A stretch of DNA of 64,000 bases from Mustelus asterias. Its lineage: Eukaryota. Positions 8,445-57,802 of this stretch are shown here, in pieces (positions within the stretch are counted from its first letter, which is position 1; each line of letters starts with the position of its first letter). The stretch spans positions 60,760,001 to 60,824,000 of the forward strand of contig NC_135803.1 of assembly GCF_964213995.1 (NCBI RefSeq), written 5' to 3'. The translations under genes and the position numbers were made by a program. The notes under the pieces are model-generated. The model was not told the DNA's origin. It searched no databases and was given only the letters and a program-made list of their open reading frames with translations.

Positions 8445-11400
8445 AAGACCATAAGACATAGGAGCGGAAGTAAGGCCATTCGGCCCATCGAGTCCACTCC
8501 ACCATTCAATCATGGTTGATTTCAACTCCATTTACCCGCTCTCTCCCCATAGCCCTTAATTCCTCGAGAAATCAAGAATTTATCAATTTCTGTCTTGAAG
8601 ACGCTCAACGTCTCGGCCTCCACAGCCCTCTGTGGCAATGAATTCCACAGACCCACCACTCTCTGGCTGAAGAAATTTCTCCTCATCTCTGTTCTAAAGT
8701 GACTCCCTTTTATTCTAAGGCTGTGCCCCTGCGTCCTAGTCTCCCCTGTTAATGGAAACAACTTCCCTACGTCCATCCTATCTAAGCCGTTCATTATCTT
8801 GTAAATTTCTATCAGATCTCCCCTCAACCTCCTAAACTCCAATGAATATAATCCCACGATCCTCAGACGTTCATCGTATGTCAGGCCTACCATTCGTGGG
8901 ATCATCCGTGTGAATCTCCGCTGGACCCGCTCCAGTGCCAGTATGTCCTTCCTGAGGTGTGGGGCCCAAAATTGCTCACAGTGCTCCAAATGGGGCCTAA
9001 CCAGTGCTTTATAAAGCCTCAGAAGTACATCCCTGCTTTTGTATTCCAAGCCTCTTGAGATAAATGACAACATTACATTTGCTTTCTTAATTACGGACTC
9101 AACCTGCAAGTTTACCTTTAGAGAATCCTGGACTAGGACTCCCAAGTCCCTTTGCACTTTAGCATTATGAATTTTGTCACCGTTTAGAAAATAGTCCATG
9201 CCTCTATTCTTTTTTCCAAAGTGTACGACCTCGCACTTGCCCACGTTGAATTTCATCAGCCACTTCTTGGACCACTCTCCTAAACTGTCTAAATCTTTCT
9301 GCAGCCTCCCCACCTCCTCAATACTACCTGCCCCTCCACCTATCTTTGTATCATCGGCAAACTTGGCCAGAATGCTCCCAGTCCCGTCATCTAGATCGTT
9401 AATATATAAAGAGAACAGCTGTGGCCCCAACACTGAACCCTGCGGGACACCACTTGTCACCGGTTGCCATTCTGAGAAAGAACCTTTTATCCCAACTCTC
9501 TGCCTTCTGTCTGACAGCCAATCGTCAATCCATGTTAGTACCTTGCCTCGAATACCATGGGCCCTTATTTTACTCAGCAGTCTCCCGTGAGGCACCTTGT
9601 CAAAGGCCTTTTGGAAGTCAAGATAGATAACATCCATTGGCTCTCCTTGGTCTAACCTATTTGTTATCTCTTCAAAGAACTCTAACAGGTTTGTCAGGCA
9701 CGACCTCCCCTTACTAAATCCATGCTGACTTGTCCTAATCCGACCCTGCACTTCCAAGAATTTAGAAATCTCATCCTTAACGATGGATTCTAGAATTTTG
9801 CCAACAACTGAGGTTAGGCTAATTGGCCTATAATTTTCCATCTTTTTTCTTGTTCCCTTCTTGAACAGTGGGGTTACAACAGCGATTTTCCAATCCTCTG
9901 GGACTTTCCCTGACTCCAGTGACTTTTGAAAGATCATAACTAACGCCTCCACTATTTCTTCAGCTATCTCCTTTAGAACTCTAGGATGTAGCCCATCTGG
10001 GCCCAGAGATTTATCAATTTTCAGACCTTTTAGTTTCTCTAGCACTTTCTCCTTTGTGATGGCAACCATATTCAACTCTGCCCCCTGACTTTCCTGAATT
10101 GTTGGGATATTACTCATGTCTTCTACTGTGAAGACTGGCGCAAAGTACTTATTAAGTTCCTCAGCTATTTCCTTGTCTCCCATCACTAGATTACCAGCGT
10201 CATTTTGGGGCGGCCCAATGTCTACTTTTGCCTCCCGTTTGTTTTTAATGTATTTAAAGAAACTTTTACTATCATTCCTAATGTTACTGGCTAGCCTACC
10301 TTCATATTTGATCCTCTCCTTCCTTATTTCTCTCTTTGTTATCCTCTGTTTGTTTTTATAGCCTTCCCAATCTTCTGACTTCCCACTACTCTTTGCCACA
10401 TTATAGGCTCTCTCTTTTGCCTTGATGCATTCCCTGACTTCCTTTGTCAGCCATGGCTGCCTAATCCCCCCTCTGATAACCTTTCTTTTGTTTGGGATGA
10501 ACCTCTGCACTGTGTCCTCAATTACTCCCAGAAACTCCTGCCATTGCTGTTCTACTGTCTTTCCCACTAGGCTCTGCTTCCAGTCGATTTTTGTCAGTTC
10601 CTCCCTCATGCGCCTGTAATTACCTTTATTTAACTGTAGAACCTTCACATCTGATTCTGCCTTCCTTCTTTCAAATTGCAGACTGAATTCTACCATATTA
10701 TGATCACTGCTTCCTAAGTGTTCCCTTACTTTAAGATATTTTATCACGTCTGGCTCATTACATAACACTAAGTCCAGAATAGCCTGTTCCCTCGTGGGCT
10801 CCATCACAAGCTGTTCCAAAAAGCCATCCTGTAAACATTCAATGAATTCCCTTTCTTTGGGTCCACTGGCAACATTATTTACCCAGTCCACCTGCATATT
10901 GAAATCCCCCATGATCACTGTGACCTTGCCTTTCTGACATGCCCTTTCTATTTCGTGGTGCATTTTGTGCCCCTGGTCCTGACCACTGTCAGGAGGCTTG
11001 TACATAACTCCCATTATGGTTTTTTTGCCTTTGTGGTTCCTCAACTCTACCCACACAGACTCCACATCGTCTGACCCTATGTCGTTTAGTGCTATTGATT
11101 TAATTTCATTTCTAATTAACAAGTCAACCCCGCCCCCTCTACCCACCTCTCTGTCTTTTCGATAGGTTGTGAATCCCTGGATGTTTAACTGCCAGTCCTG
11201 AACCCCCTGCAACCACGTCTCTGTGATGCCTACCACATCATACCTGCCAGTCACAATCTGGGCCACAAGCTCATCTACCTTGTTCCGGACACTGCGGGCA
11301 TTTAAATATAGCACCTTTAATTCCCTATTGACCGTCCCTTTTTGTTTTCGTAGTGTGGTGGACCTTGGTTTACTGAGCCTTTCCAGACACTGTGTCATAT

Positions 11401-26914: not shown

Positions 26915-29900
26915 TAGAACATAGAACATAGAAAAGCTACAGCACAAACAGGCCCTTCGGCCCACAAGTTGCGCCGAACAATTTCCTTACCTTCTAGGCT
27001 CATCTATAACCCTCTATCTTACTAACCTCCATGAACCTATCCAAAAGTCTCTTAAAAGACTCAATCGAATCCGCTTCCACCACCACTACCGGCAGCCGAT
27101 TCCACGCACCCACCACCCTCTGAGTGAAAAACTTACCCCTAACATCTCCTCTGTACCTACTCCCCAGCACCCTAAACCTGTGGCCTCTCATGACAACCAT
27201 TTCAGCCCTGGGTAAAAGACTCTGAGAATCCACTCTATCAATACCTTTCAACATCTTATACACCTCTATCAGGTCACCTCTCATCCTTCGCCTCTCCAAG
27301 GAGAATAGACCTAGCTCTCTCAACCTATCCTCATAAGGCATACCACATAATCCCGGCAACATCCTCGTAAATCTCCTCTGCACCTGTTCTATGGCTTCCG
27401 CATCCTTTCTGTAATGAGGCGACCAGAACTAGGCACAATACTCCAGGTCGGGTCTGACCAGGATCCTATACAGCTGCAGCATTGTCTCCCAATTTCTAAA
27501 CTCAATTCCTCTATTGATGAAGGCCAGTATTCCATACGCCTTCTTAACCACAGCCACTACCTGCAACGCCGCTTTGAGCGTCATAGAAATCATAGAAACC
27601 CTACAGTACAGAAAGAGGCCATTCGGCCCATCGAGTCTGCACCGACCACAATCCCACCCACACCCTACCCCTATATCCCTACATATTTTACCCGCTAATC
27701 CCTCTAATCTACGCATCCCAGGACACTAAGGGGCAATTTCAGCATGGCCAATCAACCTAACCCGCACATCTTTGGACTGTGGGAGGAAACCGGAGCACCC
27801 GGAGGAAACCCACGCAGACACGGGGAGAATGTGCAAACTCCTCACAGACAGTGACCCAAGCCGGAATCGAACCCGGGACCCTGGAGCTGTGAAGCAGCAG
27901 TGCTAACCATTGTGCTACCGTGCCGCCCTAACCCGGACCCCAAGATCCCTCTGTTCTCCCACACTGCCAAGCGTCTAACCCTTAAGATTATATTCTTCCA
28001 TCCTAGTCAACCTGCCAAAATGAACCACCACACACTTATCTGGGTTGAAGTCCATCTGCCACTTCTCCACCCAGTCTTGCATCTTATCTATGTCTCGTTG
28101 CAACTGCTGACATCCCTCTACAGTATCCACAACACCTCCAACCTTTGTGTCATCAGCAAACTTGCCAATCCATCCTTCCACTTCCTCATTTATAAAAATC
28201 ACAAAGATCAAGGGTCCCAGAACAGATCCCTGGGGCACCCCACTGGTGACCGACCTCCACTCTGAAAAAGACCCATCTACAACCACTCTTTGCCTTCTGT
28301 GGGCAAGCCAGTTCTGAATCCACAAAGCAACATCCCCTTGTATCCCATGCCCCTTCACTTTCTCCATAAGCCTTGCATGGAGCACCTTATCAAACGCCTT
28401 ACTGAACTCCATATAAACCACATCTACCGCTCTTCCCCCGTCTAAGTGTCTAGTCACATCTTCAAAAAAGTCAATCAGACTCGTAAGGCATGATCTGCCT
28501 CGGACAAAGCCATGCTGGCTACTTCTAATCATACTATTCCATTCCAAATGTTCATAAATCCTGCCTCTCAGGATCTTCTCCTTCAACTTACCTACCACTG
28601 AGGTTAGACTCACCAGTCTATAATTTCCTGGGCTATCTCTTCTCCCTTTCTTGAATAACGGAACCACATCCGCCATCCTCCAATCCTCCGGAACCTCTTC
28701 CATCTCCATTGATGATGCAAAGATCATTGCCAGAGGATCAGCAATCTCTTCCCTCGCCTCCCACAGTAACCTGGGGTACATCCCATCTGGTCCTGGTTAT
28801 TTATCTAACTTGCTGCTTTTCAACAGCTCCAACACATCCTCTTTCCTAATGCCCACATGCTCAATCTTCTCTGTCCACTGCAAGTCTGCACTGCAACTAC
28901 TAAGATCCTTTTCCACTGTGAATACTGAAGCAAAGTATTCATTGAGTACCTCTGCTATTTCAACCGGTTCAATACAGACTTTCCCACCGTCACATTTGAT
29001 AGGTCCTACTCCTTCACATCTTATCCTCTTGCTCTTCACATACTTGTAGAATGCCTTGGGGTTTTCCTTTATCCTGTCTGCCAAGGCCTTCTCATGTCCC
29101 CTCCTGGCTCTTCTAATTTCCCTCTTTAGTTCCTTCCTACCAGTCGTATACTCTTCTAGATTTCTAACATTACATGGCTCCCCGAACTTTTTGTAGGCTT
29201 TTCTTTTCTTCCTGACTAAATCCGTTACAGCTTTCGTGCACCACGGTTCCTGTAACCTACCATAACTCCCCTGTCGCACCAGAACATTGCCGTGCAGAGC
29301 TCCAGACAAATTTTCCTTGAAAATTTGCCACATTTCTTCCGTACATTTCCCTGAGAAAACTTCCTTCCAATTTATGCCTCTAATTCCCTGCCTAATAGCA
29401 TCATAGTTGCCCTTACTCCAGATAAACACTTTCCTAGCTCGGCTGATCCTATCACTCTCCAATGCTAGTGTAAAGGAGATAGAGTTATGATCACTATCCC
29501 CAAAATGCTCTCCCACTGATAGATCTGACACCTGCCCAGGTTCATTCCCTAATATCAAATCAAGCACAGCCTCTCCTCTTGTAGGCTTATCCACATACTG
29601 TGTCAGGAAGCTCTCCTGAACACACCTAACAAACTCCTCTCCATCTATACCCCTTACCCTAGGGATATTCCAATCGATATTTGGGAAATTATAATCTCCC
29701 ATCACGACCACTCTGTTATTATCACATCTCTCCAGAATCTGCTTCCCAATCTGCTCCTCCACATCTCTGCTACTATTGGGTGGCCTATAGAAAACACCCA
29801 GTAAAGTTACTGACCCCTTCCTGTTCCTAACCTCCACCCACAGAGATTCCGTAGACAATCCTTCCATGGCATCCATCTTTTCTACAGCTGTGACACTATC

Positions 29901-30921: not shown

Positions 30922-33298
30922 AGGTCAAAATGAAGAGTGAAGTAGTTGATTCGGAGACGAGGGTGCTGAATCTAAATAAAGGAAACTATGAAGATATGAG
31001 GCGTGAGTTGGCCTTGATTTTTTGGGGAGAGTTACTGAAAGGGATGACAGTGGATAGGCAATGGCAAACATTCAAGGAATGCATGGGGGAACTGCAGCAA
31101 CTGTTTATCCCTATCTGACACAAAAGCAAAATGGGTAAGAGGGCCAATCCATGGCTTGCAAAAGAAATTAGAGATAATATTCAATCCAAGGAAGAAGCAC
31201 GCAGGTTGGCCAAGAAAAATAATAGGACTGAGAATTGGGAGCAGTTTAGAATTCAGCAAAGAAGGACCAAGGGATTGATGAAGAAAGTAAAAATACAGTA
31301 CGAAAGTAAGCTTGCAGAGAACATAAAGACTGACACAAAGGCTGGAATTTTACCGGCATGCCTGCCCTGATTCCGAGGGCGGGCGAGGCTCAAAGAACAG
31401 CATTCTCCATGGCCTCGGGGGGAATCGTATGAAACTCGGGCAGACGTGCCAATAAAATTCCGCCCTAAGTGTTTCTATAGATACGTGAAGAGAAAGGGGT
31501 TGATGAAGACAAATGTAGGTCCCCGACAGGCAGAAACGAGGGAATGTATAATAGGGGACAAAGAAATGGCTGAGCAACTGAATACATACATTGATTCTGT
31601 CTTCATAAAAGAGGACACAAATCAGATACCAGAAATGTTGGAGAATACAAGAATTAGTGAGAGGGAAAAACTGAGGGAAATCATTAGTAGAGAAATGGTG
31701 CTGGGAAAATTGAGGGGAATGAAAGCATACAAATCCCCAGGGCCTGATAATCTACACCCCAGAGTACTTAAGGAAGTGGCTCTAGAAATAGTGGATGTAT
31801 TGGTGGTCATCTTCCAGGATTCTATAGACTCTGGAACAGTCCCTGCAGATTGGAGGGTAGCTAATGTCACTCCAATATTCAAAAAGGGAGGTAGAGAGAA
31901 AACAGGGAATTATAGACCAGTAAGCCTAACATCAATAGTGGGGAAAATTTTCGAATCCATTATCAAGGACTTTATAGTGGAGCATTCAAAAAGCAGTGAC
32001 AGGATCAGACAGAGTCAGCATGCATTTATGAAGGGGAAATCATGCTTGACAAATCTGTTGGAATTTTTTGAAGATGTAATTAGTAGAGTTGACAAGGGGG
32101 AGCCAGTCATTGCGGTATATTTGGACTTTCAAAAAGTGTTTGACAAAGCCCTGCATAAGAGATTATCATATAAGATTAAAGCACATGGAATTGGAGGAAG
32201 CGTATTGAGATGGATAGAAAACTAGTTGGCAGAGAGAAAACAAAAAAACTAGCAATAAATAGGTCCTTTTAAATTGACAGGCAGTAACTAGTGGGGTACC
32301 ACAGGGATCGTGCTGGGACTCCAGCTATTCACAATATATATTAATGATTTGGATGAGGAACAAAATGTAACATCTCAAGGTTTGCAGATGATACCAGGTT
32401 GGGTGGGAGGGTGAACTGTGACAAGGATGCAGAGATCCTTCAGCATGATCTGGACAGGTTGAGTGAGTGGGCAAATCTATGGCAGATGCAGTATAATTTG
32501 GATAAATATTCATTTTGGAAGCAAAAACAAGAAGGCAGATTGCTACCTGAATGGCTGTAAATTGGGAGAGGGGAGTGTGTCATGGGACCTGGTTGTCCTT
32601 GTGCATCAGTCACTGAAGGTAAGCATGCAGGTGCAGCAGGCGGTAAAGAAGGCAAATGGTATGTTGACCTACATTGCGAGAGGTTTTGAGTACAGGAGCA
32701 GGGATGTTTTGGTGCAATTATACAGGGCCTTGGTGAGGCCACACCGAGAGTATTGTGTGCAGCTTTTGTCTCCTTTTCTGAGGAAGGATGTTCTTGCTTT
32801 CGAAGGAGTGCAGCTGAGGTTTACCAGGCTGATTCCGGGGATGGTGGGACTGAAGTATGAGGAGAGATTGATTAGGTTAGGATTGTTTTCACTGGAGTTC
32901 AGATGAATTAGGGGGGCTCTCATAGAGACTTATCAAATTCTAACAGGCCTAGACAGGGTTGATGCAGGGAGGATATTCCTGATGGTGGGTGTGTCCAGAA
33001 CCAGGGGTCACATTCCGAGGATTCGGGATAGGCCATTTAGAATGGAGGTGAGGAGGCATTTCTTTACCCAAAGAGTGGTGAGCCTATGGAATTCATTATC
33101 ACAGGAAGTAGTTGATGCCCAAACTTTGAATGTATTCTAGATATAGCACTTGAGGCGAATAGGATCAAAGGTTACGGGGAGAAAGCAGGATTAGGTTATT
33201 GAGTTGGACGATTAGCCATGACCGTGATGAATGGCAAAGCAGGCTCGAAGGGCTAAATGGCCTCCTCCTGCTCCTATATTCTATGTTTCTATGTTTCT
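30922..33298 (+). mobile_element. CR1 LINE, 5'-truncated and frameshifted; an HE1 tail (30832-30920, minus) abuts its 5' end
   Basis: ORFs 30852-31118, 31131-31370, 31446-32225, 32463-32906 with CR1 motifs; tail ttctatgtttctatgtttcta. Confidence 0.94.
31340..31465. mobile_element. PIF/Harbinger-type MITE inserted in CR1 ORF2
   Basis: TIRs ggctggaatttta ... taaaattccgccc; 3-bp flanks aaa/taa; CR1 text gactgacac|taagtgtttctataga rejoins across it. Confidence 0.85.
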
Positions 33299-53110: not shown

Positions 53111-54475
53111 CTACCACAGACATGAATGTGGTACATTTTGAAGATTCTTCATCTAACAGGATCTGCCAGAACCTGCAGTTTGCATCCAGGATGCTGAAAA
53201 CCTTAGTATTTTGCACGTCTACTATCACCTGTTCCACTGTTTTCATAGGATGATGAGGTCTGAGCTGTTCTTTGTTCAAGTGCACCAGATCAATGTAAAT
53301 TCTGACCTTGCCTTCTTTCTTTACTACAGCCACCATCGCTGAAATCCATTCTGTGGCCTCGTCTGTGGGAGTCATGGCACCTAGTTTTGTCACCCAATGC
53401 AGCTCATTGACTATTTTCTGCTTTGTTGCTATTGTTACTCTTCTTGGTGCACAAACTGTTGGTGGGACTAAGTTATAGGAACATAGAAACATTGAAGATA
53501 GAAGCAGGAGGAGGCCACTTGGCTCTTCAGTGCATGGTGCATACTCCCCTCTCCCAGTTTACAGCCATTCAGGTAGTAATCTACCTTCTCGTTTTTGCTT
53601 CCAAAGTGAATAACCTCACACTTATCCAAATTATACTGCATCTGCCATTGATTAGCCCACTCACCCAACTTGTCCAGATCATGCTGAAGAATTTCTGCAT
53701 CCTCATCACAGTTCACCCTCCCACCCAACTTAGTATCGTCTGCAAATTTTGAACTGTTCCGTCATCCAAATCATTAATATATATTGTGAATAGCTGCGGT
53801 CCCAGCACCGATCCCTGTGGCACATCACTAGTTATGCCTGTCAATTTGAAAAGCACCAATTAATTTTTTTTACTCTTTGGGCCCGATTTTACCAAAATTT
53901 CCGGGCGCGAACTCGCGGTAAAGTTGGGCGTCGGGCCTAAAACGTGATCTGCACCCGACTCATGGCAGATCGCGTCTTTACCAAGCCCCAATCCAGGCGC
54001 GGATCTGGCGCGCGCCAGAATCGGCTGGCGCGACGATTTAAATGCATTTGCATGTATTTAAATTGACTTAATGAAGCTCGCGCCCAACTTTTCCGATGAA
54101 TCCGACTTTACCAGGTTGCGGCCCATTTCGTGTCCGCGCATTAAATGACCTGCTAAATAAAAGTCCGAATGGGACTCCAATTCAGCAGGGGAACCGCCGA
54201 AGCAAATCCCCCCCGACCATCTTTCGCGGACCCCCCTCACGAACCACCCCAGCAGCCCAACCCCCCCGCTCCCCCTCAATTGGACCACCCTGGGAGGCAG
54301 GCCCCGCCGGCAGATCCCCCCCCCCCCCCCGCCCCGGGGATCTGACCCCCTGGGAGGCACACCCCCGAACTAGCTTGATCGCTGGTCTTCCTCCACCATC
54401 CTTCCGATCTGCAGTCCGCCGACAGCCTCCTGCACGTTCCTGGCCTTGCTCTGCCTTTCCCGGGGGGGGGGGCAG

Positions 54476-55140
54476 ATGGAGAAGGGGAGTGACGTGTCTG
54501 CCCCGGGGGGGGGGGGAATGGAGAAGGGGAGTGATGTGTCTGCCCCTGGGGGGGGGGGAGGGGGGGCGGGGGTGGGTGGGCGGGGGGGGGGGATGGAGAA
54601 GGGGAGTGATGTGTCTGCCCCGGGGGGGGTGTGGAATGGAGAAGGGGAGTGCTGTGTCTGCCCCTGGGGGGGGGGGGGGGGGGGCGGAGGGGGGGATGGA
54701 GAAGGGGAGTGACGTGTCTGCCACGGGGGGGGGTGGGGGGGATGGGGATGGAAAAGGGGAGTGACGTGTCTTTCCCTGGAGGGGGCGGGATGGAGAAGGG
54801 GAGTGATGTGTCTCCTCTGGGCCGGAGGGGGGGGGGGTGTGTGTGGGGAGCGGAATGGAGAAGGGGAGTGATGTGTCTCCCCTGGGGGTGGGGGGGAATG
54901 GAGAAGGGGAGTGACGTGTCTTCCCCTGGGGGGGGGGGGGGGGGGGAGGAGGGCGCTGCCAGTCTGCGGCCGATCCCTCCTCCCCACTGGAGGAGGGATC
55001 AGAGGAGGGATCCCCCCCCCCCCAGGGGCAGACAAGTCACTCCCCTCCTCCATTCCCCCCCACCCCCAGGGGAGACACGTCACTCCCCTTCTCCATCCCC
55101 CCTCTCCCCCAGGGGAGACACGTCACTCCCCTTCTCCATC
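54476..55140. repeat. G-rich minisatellite (core atggagaaggggagtgaYgtgtct plus poly-G spacer): 9 forward and 3 inverted copies
   Basis: Forward units near 54476, 54518, 54593, 54636, 54696, 54748, 54790, 54855, 54898; inverted units near 55025, 55069, 55112. Confidence 0.92.
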
Positions 55141-55190
55141 TACCCCCTGCCCCCCCCCTCCTCCTCCCCCCCCCCCCCCCCCCCCCCAGG

Positions 55191-55444
55191 GAAAGGCAAA
55201 GCAGCTCAGACAGCAGAGAGGATGAAAGGAATTCCCTTTGGAGGATAATGTCCAAATCACAGGAACTAAAAACCTGACAGTCCAAAATCTGGGATAATAT
55301 TTCAAAATGTATATCCCCCCATCCCTGTTCTGTAATATTATCCCAGATTTTGGACTGTCAGGTTTTTAGTTCCTGTGATTTGGACATTATCCTCCAAAGG
55401 GAATTCCTTTCATCCTCTCTGCTGTCTGAGCTGCTTTGCCTTTC
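55191..55444. repeat. Perfect 111-bp inverted repeat with 32-nt spacer
   Basis: 55191-55301 is the exact reverse complement of 55334-55444 by base-by-base comparison. Confidence 0.97.
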
Positions 55445-57802
55445 GCGCCTGGGCGCACTGCCTGCGGTTTGTTCCGAACTGCGCATGTGCAGCTGGAGCT
55501 CCGGCCGCTCCAACGGCGCTAAGCCCCGCCCAACAGACCGGTGCCGAAAAAAGGCATATGGGCGCTTTGGAGCGCGGCTGCTGGGCGCGGATCCGCTTGA
55601 CGACCAGACCCGGCACTTCGTCCCGATTTGGTAAAATCGGCCCCTTTGTTTCCTCTCTGCCAACCAGTTTTCTATCCATCTCAATACACTTCCTCCAATC
55701 CCATGCACTTTAATCTTGCATGATAATCTCTTGTGTGGGACTTTGTCAAACGCTTTCTGAAAGTCCAAATATACCACATTGGCACATTCCCCCATGTCAA
55801 TCCTACTAGTTACATCTTCAAAAGATTCCAACAGATTTGTCAAGCATGATTTCCCCTTCATAAATCCATGCTGCCTCTGTCTGATCCTGCCACTGCTTTC
55901 TAAATGCTCTGCTAAAAAGTCCTTGATAATGGATTATCTAGTCTCATGTGGTATATTACTGGTAGCTCACCAATTATATCACAGTTGAAGAGGTCTTTGT
56001 ACCTATTATTTCTGGTGTTTGGTGTTGTAAAGCATATACGTCTGGACCAAGTTGGGTGAGCCCCAATGTAATGCTGTCCCATAGGCATAACGGTAGCCTT
56101 ACAGCCTGGTCACCTACATGAAACTTGAAACTGTCCTGTGTGCAGTGGAGAGTGGCTGCACCTTCTGTGTGGGTGGTTTGTCCACCATAAGCCATGAGCC
56201 CCACTTGGGTATTGCTGCATATGGGTTTAGTTCCCGTCACATTTAGTGGGCAATATGTTACAAATTGTTCCAGTGTCAATCTGTATCTTCAGTCTTGCAT
56301 TACTGCAATCATGTTGAGGGTGGTGAAGGTCTCATTTTCCATGAGAGTGTTGACACTCTCACAATTGAGTGTTGTTAGAGGCTCTGTGGTTTCACTGCTT
56401 TGGCTGATCTCCAATTCATTCACCTTGCTGATGCTCCTACCACTGAAGGGCTGACAGGCTGCCATGTAGCCGATTGTAGAAGGAGGCTGCTGTGGTTTCA
56501 ATCTCCAGCCAATCTATTTGCCATTTTGCAAAATGAATCCACTTGCTATATTTTTTGCAGCATTTACCATGCACAAAACATGTTGTTCTGTTTTGACGGT
56601 GATGGCAACTGTCATTGGAGTAGGGCATGCCCTGGACCATGAAAGTTCTGTTTCCATCTAAAATCTCTGCTACTATTTTCTGATTGTTCATTTAATATAT
56701 AGATGTTAATGGTTGTTTGTAGGGTTAAATCTTTCTCTTGCAGCAACTGCTTACAGACAAGATCACTGTGAATCCCGCAGACTATTCGATCCCCGATTAA
56801 CTCATCAGTAACGTGTCAAATGCATATGTCTTTGCCAAGGTGGCCGTATAAGATTCTTCTTTGTTCTTTTTTGGATTAAATGCGTACCTGTTGAGTATTA
56901 TATTTTTCATCAGATGAAAAATGTTCTCAAACTTTCCCAGAGTGATTTTGGGGTCCTCTTTCTCCTTCTTCATTTGGAAAATAAACAACTCAAATTTCTC
57001 GACGCCCTTGGGACATGCTAAGTTTAATCGGGTGTAAGCTTTTGAACTTGTCAGAAAATGCAACACCACAGTAAATATGCTACTGCTTCTCAAACTTCTC
57101 CCAACTGTTTGCCATGTTTTCGAAGACGAGTGGGTCGATGCGGCAAAATCCCTTGTGCCATATTGCCAACTCCTGATACCATGTAAATGCATTGAGCTCC
57201 TTAAACACTGACAACAAGGACTTGTAATAAATAATACTTTATTCACTAGCTGAGTCCATGTTGCTATTCAGCCCACGCTCCCAGAGAAATCTCCCACACT
57301 CCCGTCACGTGACCCTTTTAGTGGACACGTCATCATGTGGCCACTCAATCTGCACTGTCCCATGAATCTCTTTTACCTGAAGCCTGCATTGTGAAGATTC
57401 CTGAGTATTTGCACTCAGAAAGAGGCAGGTATAAAGCAAATACCCAATGTAATGGACCAAGGAAATTCAGGCACACATCTTACACCTATAAATTTTGGGT
57501 GCAGCCGGAAATATTCTTTTTCTTTCTGGTGTGTATTTTTTTAAGGTATCCTCACTGAGAACTGCAGTATATTTTCTGCATTTTTAGAATATATCTGTAT
57601 GGCATCAGTATGAGTTACGTTGAAAATTGAAAAGCTTCCCCAATTGCATATATTTAAACCTGCTCTGCTTAATGTGGCTGAATGAAGATGGCCTGAAGCT
57701 TGCATTTTCATAGTTAAAGAGGGAACATGTGGCATAAGTTCTGTACTCTCCGAGAGTACAATTGTTTATCGTGATTTCTAATTGCTTATGCTGAATTATA
57801 GG

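Follow-up and report, generated by a model that had tools for sequence, protein, structure and literature searches.

A probable non-autonomous PIF/Harbinger family with an internal hairpin in Mustelus asterias, and a recurrent Penelope insertion site at the border of its loop

Elements of the foldback type, among them FB and Galileo, carry their long inverted repeats at the termini, with tandem repeats inside the inverted blocks, and are unstable and prone to rearrange. In Y-chromosome palindromes the arms undergo conversion and exchange alleles. The element described in this work spans positions 53879-55644 (1766 bp) of a 64,000-nucleotide stretch of the Mustelus asterias genome (assembly GCF_964213995.1, contig NC_135803.1, positions 60,760,001 to 60,824,000, forward strand), hereafter called the window, to which the coordinates below refer. 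Like FB and Galileo, it has inverted blocks with internal tandem repeats. Unlike them, it hosts its long inverted repeats in the interior, within short Harbinger terminal inverted repeats (TIRs), and is for this reason not a foldback element. Vertebrate PIF/Harbinger elements usually carry TIRs of 25-50 bp, and the study that gives this range found none in the elephant shark (PMC9179366; this and the other papers are cited for the parts consulted). Hot spots of nesting confined to a single nucleotide have been described for Alu elements inserted into Alu (PMC2836564), and a weak preference for palindromes for plant long terminal repeat (LTR) elements (PMC6911290). The instability of long inverted repeats drops with spacer length and divergence (PMC10164571). 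The reading proposed here, which we hold to be probable as a whole, is that the element is a non-autonomous PIF/Harbinger carrying a minisatellite and a hairpin, that the hairpin arms convert each other, and that the element offers Penelope retroelements a hot spot set mainly by its sequence.

The element shares with the vertebrate non-autonomous PIF/Harbinger elements of PMC9179366 the presence of TIRs, 3-bp target duplications and relatives encoding PF13359/PF04827 DDE transposases. It differs from them, as described in the consulted part of that paper, in the length of the TIRs (18 bp), in the inverted minisatellite and long hairpin inside, and in having relatives in which no Myb open reading frame was detected. 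The coding relatives have equally short TIRs, and the range is a usual one, not a strict one. As in the nesting hot spots of PMC2836564 and PMC6911290, one element has been repeatedly struck at one position of another; unlike what the consulted text of those papers reports, the insert is here a Penelope element (GIY-YIG), about 8-14% of the copies are occupied, and the site falls at the border of a hairpin loop. The inserts resemble the Penelope-like retroelements of PMC3846280 in their inverted pseudo-LTRs, optional tail, short duplications and GIY-YIG domain. The consulted part of that paper reports an AT-rich target preference only, whereas the inserts seen here show a stagger of 12 bp and a symmetric candidate for a target motif. 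Differently from the inverted repeats of PMC10164571, as described in its consulted part, and from Y-chromosome palindromes, the same hairpin is shared by hundreds of dispersed, similarly old copies, with three arm lengths. By title or start of abstract, no paper describing the element, or dealing with a target motif of Penelope, was found in a search whose coverage did not extend to subscription journals and repeat databases.

An earlier note on this DNA, made from the sequence alone, had assigned the element to PIF/Harbinger, and the TIRs, the 3-bp duplications and the existence of relatives with a Harbinger transposase bear the assignment out. A profile search with PF13359 in the genome (3.68 Gb) gave 10,689 candidates, a number indicating that Harbinger elements are abundant in M. 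asterias; 150 were scored, and 30 loci taken. Five of these loci (L271-L275) have the left end and the G-rich unit of the window element. In four of the five, both TIRs, which are the same short TIRs, enclose about 3.6 kb, and in two the duplications are exact. A self-inverted hairpin of 117-130 bp is present in four of the five, where the window hairpin sits. Their transposases match PF13359 (E 1.6e-38 and 7e-38), and PF04827 as well. The note had suggested searching for a Harbinger transposase inside the same TIRs, and these loci provide it. As their ends are 72-80% identical to those of the window type (subfamily A, see below), L271-L275 are relatives, not proven mobilisers. The note had also seen no transposase in the window copy; alignment to the coding relatives indicates that the whole transposase region, between the left end and a segment at 54346-54453, is missing. 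The window element is thus likely a non-autonomous PIF/Harbinger element moved by a related transposase. A separate Harbinger family came to light in the same search (L241-L244 and L261, on contigs C96, C140, C471 and C111); its copies are 96-99% identical, reside on small contigs and hold frames longer than 400 amino acids, and the family is possibly very recent.

The notion of a non-autonomous family dispersing the whole cassette, put forward in the note with the proposal to check the consensus for palindrome and array, is supported. Copies are dispersed, and the consensus of 30 full-length copies includes both arrays and hairpin. A search with the whole element (40 scored of 5708 candidates) gave at least 199 matches. 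Exact 3-bp duplications flank 20 of 23 distinct full-length copies, the triplets being variable and mostly AT-rich, and the loop was detected in 26 of 29 distinct loci from this search. As an unselected sample, the first 100 of the 251 genome-wide matches to a 20-mer of the loop were taken in contig order (L131-L229 plus the window copy). Fifty-nine belong to subfamily A, the type of the window copy, and 41 to the long-armed subfamilies B and C. The right-end pattern of A has 149 exact matches genome-wide. Of these, 25 lie on the first two contigs, and for 21 of the 25 a hairpin match was found nearby by eye; once divergence is allowed for, A is estimated at about 200-260 copies. The tree of A (95 rows, of which four are B/C strays) is star-like, with a median divergence of 2.1% at non-CpG and 9.8% at CpG sites. 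Star shape and low non-CpG divergence suggest a single burst of spread for A. Sequences of the hairpin arms and of the ends were met in contigs of runs X1 and X5, from two organisms, and only sparsely in X8 and X13, suggesting that the family is limited to close relatives.

The hot spot was first noticed as one and the same kind of foreign repeat lying at one site in 7 of 48 copies. Of the 100 copies of the unselected sample, 12 show a break directly after the base equivalent to 55341, and two more break one base earlier. Nine of these breaks are due to Penelope (8/59 in A, 1/41 in B/C), five are not. Exact 31-mers retrieved 10 filled and 117 empty sites. Overall, 19 distinct loci have a Penelope insert at the hot spot. 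No two of the 14 inserts measured at both junctions are equally long (58-592 bp), at least four sequence variants are represented, and 12 of the 14 duplicate exactly the 12 bp 55330-55341. As the inserts vary in length and sequence, and the copies that host them are dispersed over the tree, they are repeated, separate insertions, and a single inherited insert was rejected on the same grounds. An initial impression that inserts occur in both orientations was also toned down, as three seemingly reversed inserts are tail-less, and the tail lies at the far end in only 3 of 19. The inserted element is Penelope-like by its structure, and PF01541 (GIY-YIG) matches three of four frames (E 1.7e-4 to 8.9e-3, slightly below the curated cut-off); L193, one of the three loci with a match, is a hot-spot locus. 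The genomic background was defined by 53,394 Penelope tail matches, one flank letter being excluded, and amounts to about 1 insertion per 100,000 strand positions. The site is therefore enriched several thousandfold over a uniform distribution. Duplications of 10-14 bp, one of which is likely spurious, were found at 11 of 30 background inserts (L101-L130).

The hot spot is likely set mainly by the target sequence. It features TG at 55326-55327 and CA at 55344-55345, placed symmetrically around the 12 bp, with the CA two bases past the duplication. Among background junctions, TG was counted by eye at -16/-15 in 12 of 30 cases, and G at -15 in 45 of 100 (C being excluded there). In junctions outside the family with the same 9-bp context, G at -15 was again counted by eye in 4 of 7. 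The equivalent site in the left arm lacks the TG, and none of 100 copies has a Penelope insert there. Subfamily B couples a weaker match to the motif with fewer inserts. In the model proposed, the Penelope endonuclease would nick 12 nucleotides apart within a two-fold symmetric motif, TG and CA separated by 16 nucleotides, to which A offers a match at 55326-55345. A position in the reverse transcriptase (RT) gene of a long interspersed element (LINE) also recurs as a Penelope target, in 3 of 100 background junctions (L101 and L119 included), and one filled and two empty copies of it were found in the 1.1 Mb examined. Judging from translation, this target seems to correspond to about 55650-55662 of the window, a few bases from the point in which the Harbinger is inserted.

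According to a different view, the hairpin extrudes as a cruciform or as a single-strand hairpin, and its stem-loop junction is thereby laid open, whether or not the motif plays a part, to the Penelope GIY-YIG and to host nucleases. The duplicated 12 bp indeed span the border between loop and stem, five non-Penelope breaks fall at the same one or two bases, and more cluster in or beside the loop. Moreover, 11 of the 18 genome-wide junctions sharing the same 9-bp context belong to this Harbinger family, and the 12-mer of the hot spot occurs 962 times, none of the junctions listed outside the family making use of it. The 12-mer control is unmatched and cannot decide, because the TG motif lies just upstream of the 12-mer and was left out; a structural cause deduced from this control alone was downgraded accordingly. 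The structurally equivalent site in the left arm is unused in 100 copies. Long-armed B and C repeats should extrude more readily, yet 1 of 41 contains Penelope at the site, against 8 of 59 in A. Finally, the LINE site, which is not in a hairpin, is perhaps equally hot (three sites seen). Extrusion is thus a rather unlikely explanation of the hot spot, and even a contribution of structure to it is held unlikely. Were the hairpin to extrude, the transposon would act as a fragile site that is mobile and traps retroelements. On this reading, for which our confidence is equally low, a Harbinger lineage with a self-converting hairpin would have seeded hundreds of fragile sites, each a structure-guided trap for Penelope, and the hairpin would have been kept through at least three subfamilies and a coding form, steering the GIY-YIG nuclease to one nucleotide.

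The three subfamilies differ in the hairpin. Arms measure 111-117 bp in A and about 530 bp in B, whose elements are about 1.9 kb long, have the same TIR and the same centre as A, and show 92-95% self-identity of the arms. In C the arms reach about 570 bp, the loop counts 6-7 nucleotides, and there are 22 additional bases. The shortening of the arms and the widening of the loop suggest the order C, B, A, on an unrooted comparison. Fold-back would have duplicated about 570 bp of AT-rich DNA inside a Harbinger, giving rise to C with its tiny loop; the loop would then have widened and the arms shortened, through B, to the more stable A, which would have spread in a single burst. In L156 and L166 an A-type left part is joined to a 144-bp arm of B type. 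The arm DNA is AT-rich and CpG-poor. Pack-type elements carry pieces of host genes; here, no Pfam match above cut-off was found in 35 arm frames, and no source outside the family among the 30 loci examined (40 of 1110 candidates scored), which are family copies or fragments. L131, tried as a possible source locus, was rejected, since it holds a remnant of the end of the element. Side observations on copies of the family are that L187, L150, L151 and L054 carry the right end copied in inverted orientation left of the hairpin, which extends the palindrome to as much as about 1.5 kb, that L052 hosts in the outer right arm an insert of about 770 bp, presumably SINE-like (short interspersed element), with duplicated target, and that in L017, L163, L165 and L224 another TIR-like end is close to the element, by nested or adjacent insertion.

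Breaks and flips at the centre affect B and C more than A. A flipped loop was seen in 1 of 59 A copies and in 9-10 of 41 B/C copies; these counts leave aside separately retrieved C-type loci, in which loop orientation had been scored against one arm instead of the ends of the element. Of 30 such C-type loci, 3 retain both arms and the centre. Among right-hand breaks of B/C not due to Penelope, 13 of 28 are found in the initial 40 bp out of 772, against 3 of 12 in A, where no clear excess is seen. Left-arm breaks of A fall within 15 bp of the loop motif in 5 of 7 cases. The fragility of the centre in B/C agrees with PMC10164571, according to the consulted part of which long inverted repeats are less unstable the longer the spacer and the greater the divergence.

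Has the cassette been retained because it plays a role, for example by producing hairpin or small RNAs which damp the family, or by acting in cis in transposition? A hairpin of the same descent has been kept in A, B, C and the coding relatives, and its RNA fold is very stable. Yet the centre is often lost or broken in copies, and has been differently deleted in each of the three coding copies translated; conversion alone is sufficient to keep the arms alike, Rfam gave 11 weak matches, all below gathering scores, and no host gene emerged as a source of the arms, either from Pfam on the arm frames or among the 30 loci of the arm search. A retained function is accordingly regarded as improbable.

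Mutual conversion of the arms in place is likely, since mirrored mutations largely exceed expectation. Among the private substitutions of 41 A copies that have both arms, 11 are mirrored and 114 are single, where chance would give 0.5 mirrored ones. For B, a set of 12 copies yielded 12 mirrored substitutions away from the alignment edge (six edge columns dropped), against 0.55 expected. A 6-bp indel tells a similar story: over 95 rows, the arm states are -/+ in 48, -/- in 20, +/+ in 12 and +/- in 5, with 10 unscored, and the states are scattered over the tree. The arms of the window copy are perfect because the 6-bp stretch has gone from both, and one change, found also in L180, is mirrored. 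Exchange between arms after insertion would copy or swap alleles, sometimes flip the loop, and would have perfected the window copy, the minisatellite of which may have been enlarged by slippage. Palindromes and runs of G are error-prone, and none of the short-read contigs recovered spans the locus, so that perfect symmetry or inverted layout could be imagined to be an artefact of assembly or polishing. This is very improbable: the layout is repeated on many contigs with different flanks and duplications, 114 single-arm differences have been kept, the reciprocal +/- state of the indel cannot result from homogenising, and arm and end sequences reside also in contigs of independent runs.

Several points weigh against the overall reading. 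None of the 30 transposase loci has ends near those of A, the best reaching 72-80% identity, and the transposase frame is broken in all three coding copies translated. No Pfam match to a Myb domain was found in 36 of 36 unspliced frames of L274 and 22 of 38 of L273. The target motif stems from counts by eye over 30-100 junctions, its downstream half has been read at the hot spot alone, and the product of the motif enrichments, roughly reckoned, stays about tenfold or more below the 8-14% occupancy. Polishing might fake part of the mirrored changes. The 30 C-type loci were chosen by a different query than the A/B sample, so that intact fractions are not comparable. Lastly, as breaks were counted at the first one outward from the anchor, near positions are favoured.

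The features of the window copy are reported in Table 1. The TIRs of about 17 bp and the ttt duplication seen in the earlier note are confirmed, as 18 bp with one mismatch and TTT on either side. The clean insertion that it describes, into a CR1, is borne out as an insertion into a LINE. RVT_1 positions 25-106 fall in the right flank, and positions 118-143 and 151-200 in the left, on the minus strand; as the pieces are divided between the flanks, one LINE RT frame has been split by the element. The LINE is presumably CR1-like, Pfam giving RVT_1 only. The empty site, with the LINE flanks joined, is present in short-read contigs of other runs. LINE copies akin to the flanks lie in the window at 31990-32427, 1145-1402, 9507-9734 and 28342-28520; the first aligns with both flanks, and serves as an analogue of the empty site. 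High CpG retention applies to the ends of the element (observed/expected 1.41 and 1.06, against 0.27-0.28 in the flanks), not to the palindrome, which has no CpG. With a divergence from the family consensus of 3.2% at non-CpG and 10.8% at CpG sites, the copy is only moderately young.

As to the interior, the forward array, the inverted array and the perfect 111-bp palindrome were correctly recognised in the note. So was the capacity to fold, and here capacity is all that is meant: the predicted RNA fold has z = -33, none of 200 shuffles being equally stable, and G-quadruplex-type motifs are present. The motif gcctttc occurs at 55191 (inverted) and 55438 as noted, and its first copy at 54453, one base off the reported 54454. 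The forward-inverted-forward layout is real. It is not a rearrangement of this copy, being in the consensus and inherited, as four coding relatives hold a small hairpin at the same place. That the window copy alone was rebuilt by fold-back template switching is next to impossible, even if none of the 59 copies has a larger array and the symmetry of its arms exceeds that of the consensus, since the two arrays, the hinge and the hairpin all belong to the consensus of the 30 full-length copies and recur in the coding relatives. What is special to this copy is the perfect symmetry of the arms and the size of the array, nine forward and three inverted units against the usual 1-3 and 1-2; the rest of the layout is that of the family.

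Table 1. Features of the window copy and of its flanks (window coordinates)
Feature	Position	Strand	Details
Host LINE, later RT part	53480..53878	-	Pfam RVT_1 match
Target duplication, left copy	53876..53878	.	TTT, 3 bp
Left TIR	53879..53896	+	18 bp; one mismatch to right TIR; same TIR at Harbinger transposase loci
CpG-rich left end	53879..54200	+	72-78% identity to left end of transposase-coding relatives
Segment in common with 3' part of transposase-coding relatives	54346..54453	+	query 468-690, 78-87%
Forward G-rich minisatellite	54454..54955	+	unit of about 43 bp; 9 units by motif count; six G-quadruplex-type motifs
Hinge between arrays, short inverted repeat	54958..55012	.	also in family consensus and coding relatives
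Minisatellite, inverted copy	55010..55190	-	3 units
Left hairpin arm	55191..55301	+	111 bp; perfect match to right arm
Spacer (loop)	55302..55333	.	32 nt; 20-mer starting at 55300 has 251 exact genome-wide matches
Penelope hot spot	55330..55341	+	12 bp duplicated on insertion; empty in window copy; symmetric TG/CA flanks
Right hairpin arm	55334..55444	-	111 bp; without the 6-bp insertion common there; private substitution shared with left arm
CpG-rich right end	55445..55644	+	73-80% identity to right end of coding relatives
Right TIR	55627..55644	-	18 bp
Target duplication, right copy	55645..55647	.	TTT, 3 bp
Host LINE, earlier RT part	55645..55933	-	Pfam RVT_1 match

Hundreds of similarly old copies of one hairpin, with arms of three lengths, amount to a natural replicate experiment on how palindromes convert, flip and break in the germ line of a vertebrate. 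A defined substrate is offered by the hot spot to ask whether sequence or structure guides the Penelope nuclease, and the candidate symmetric motif with its 12-nucleotide stagger may be tested on the more than 53,000 Penelope junctions of this genome.

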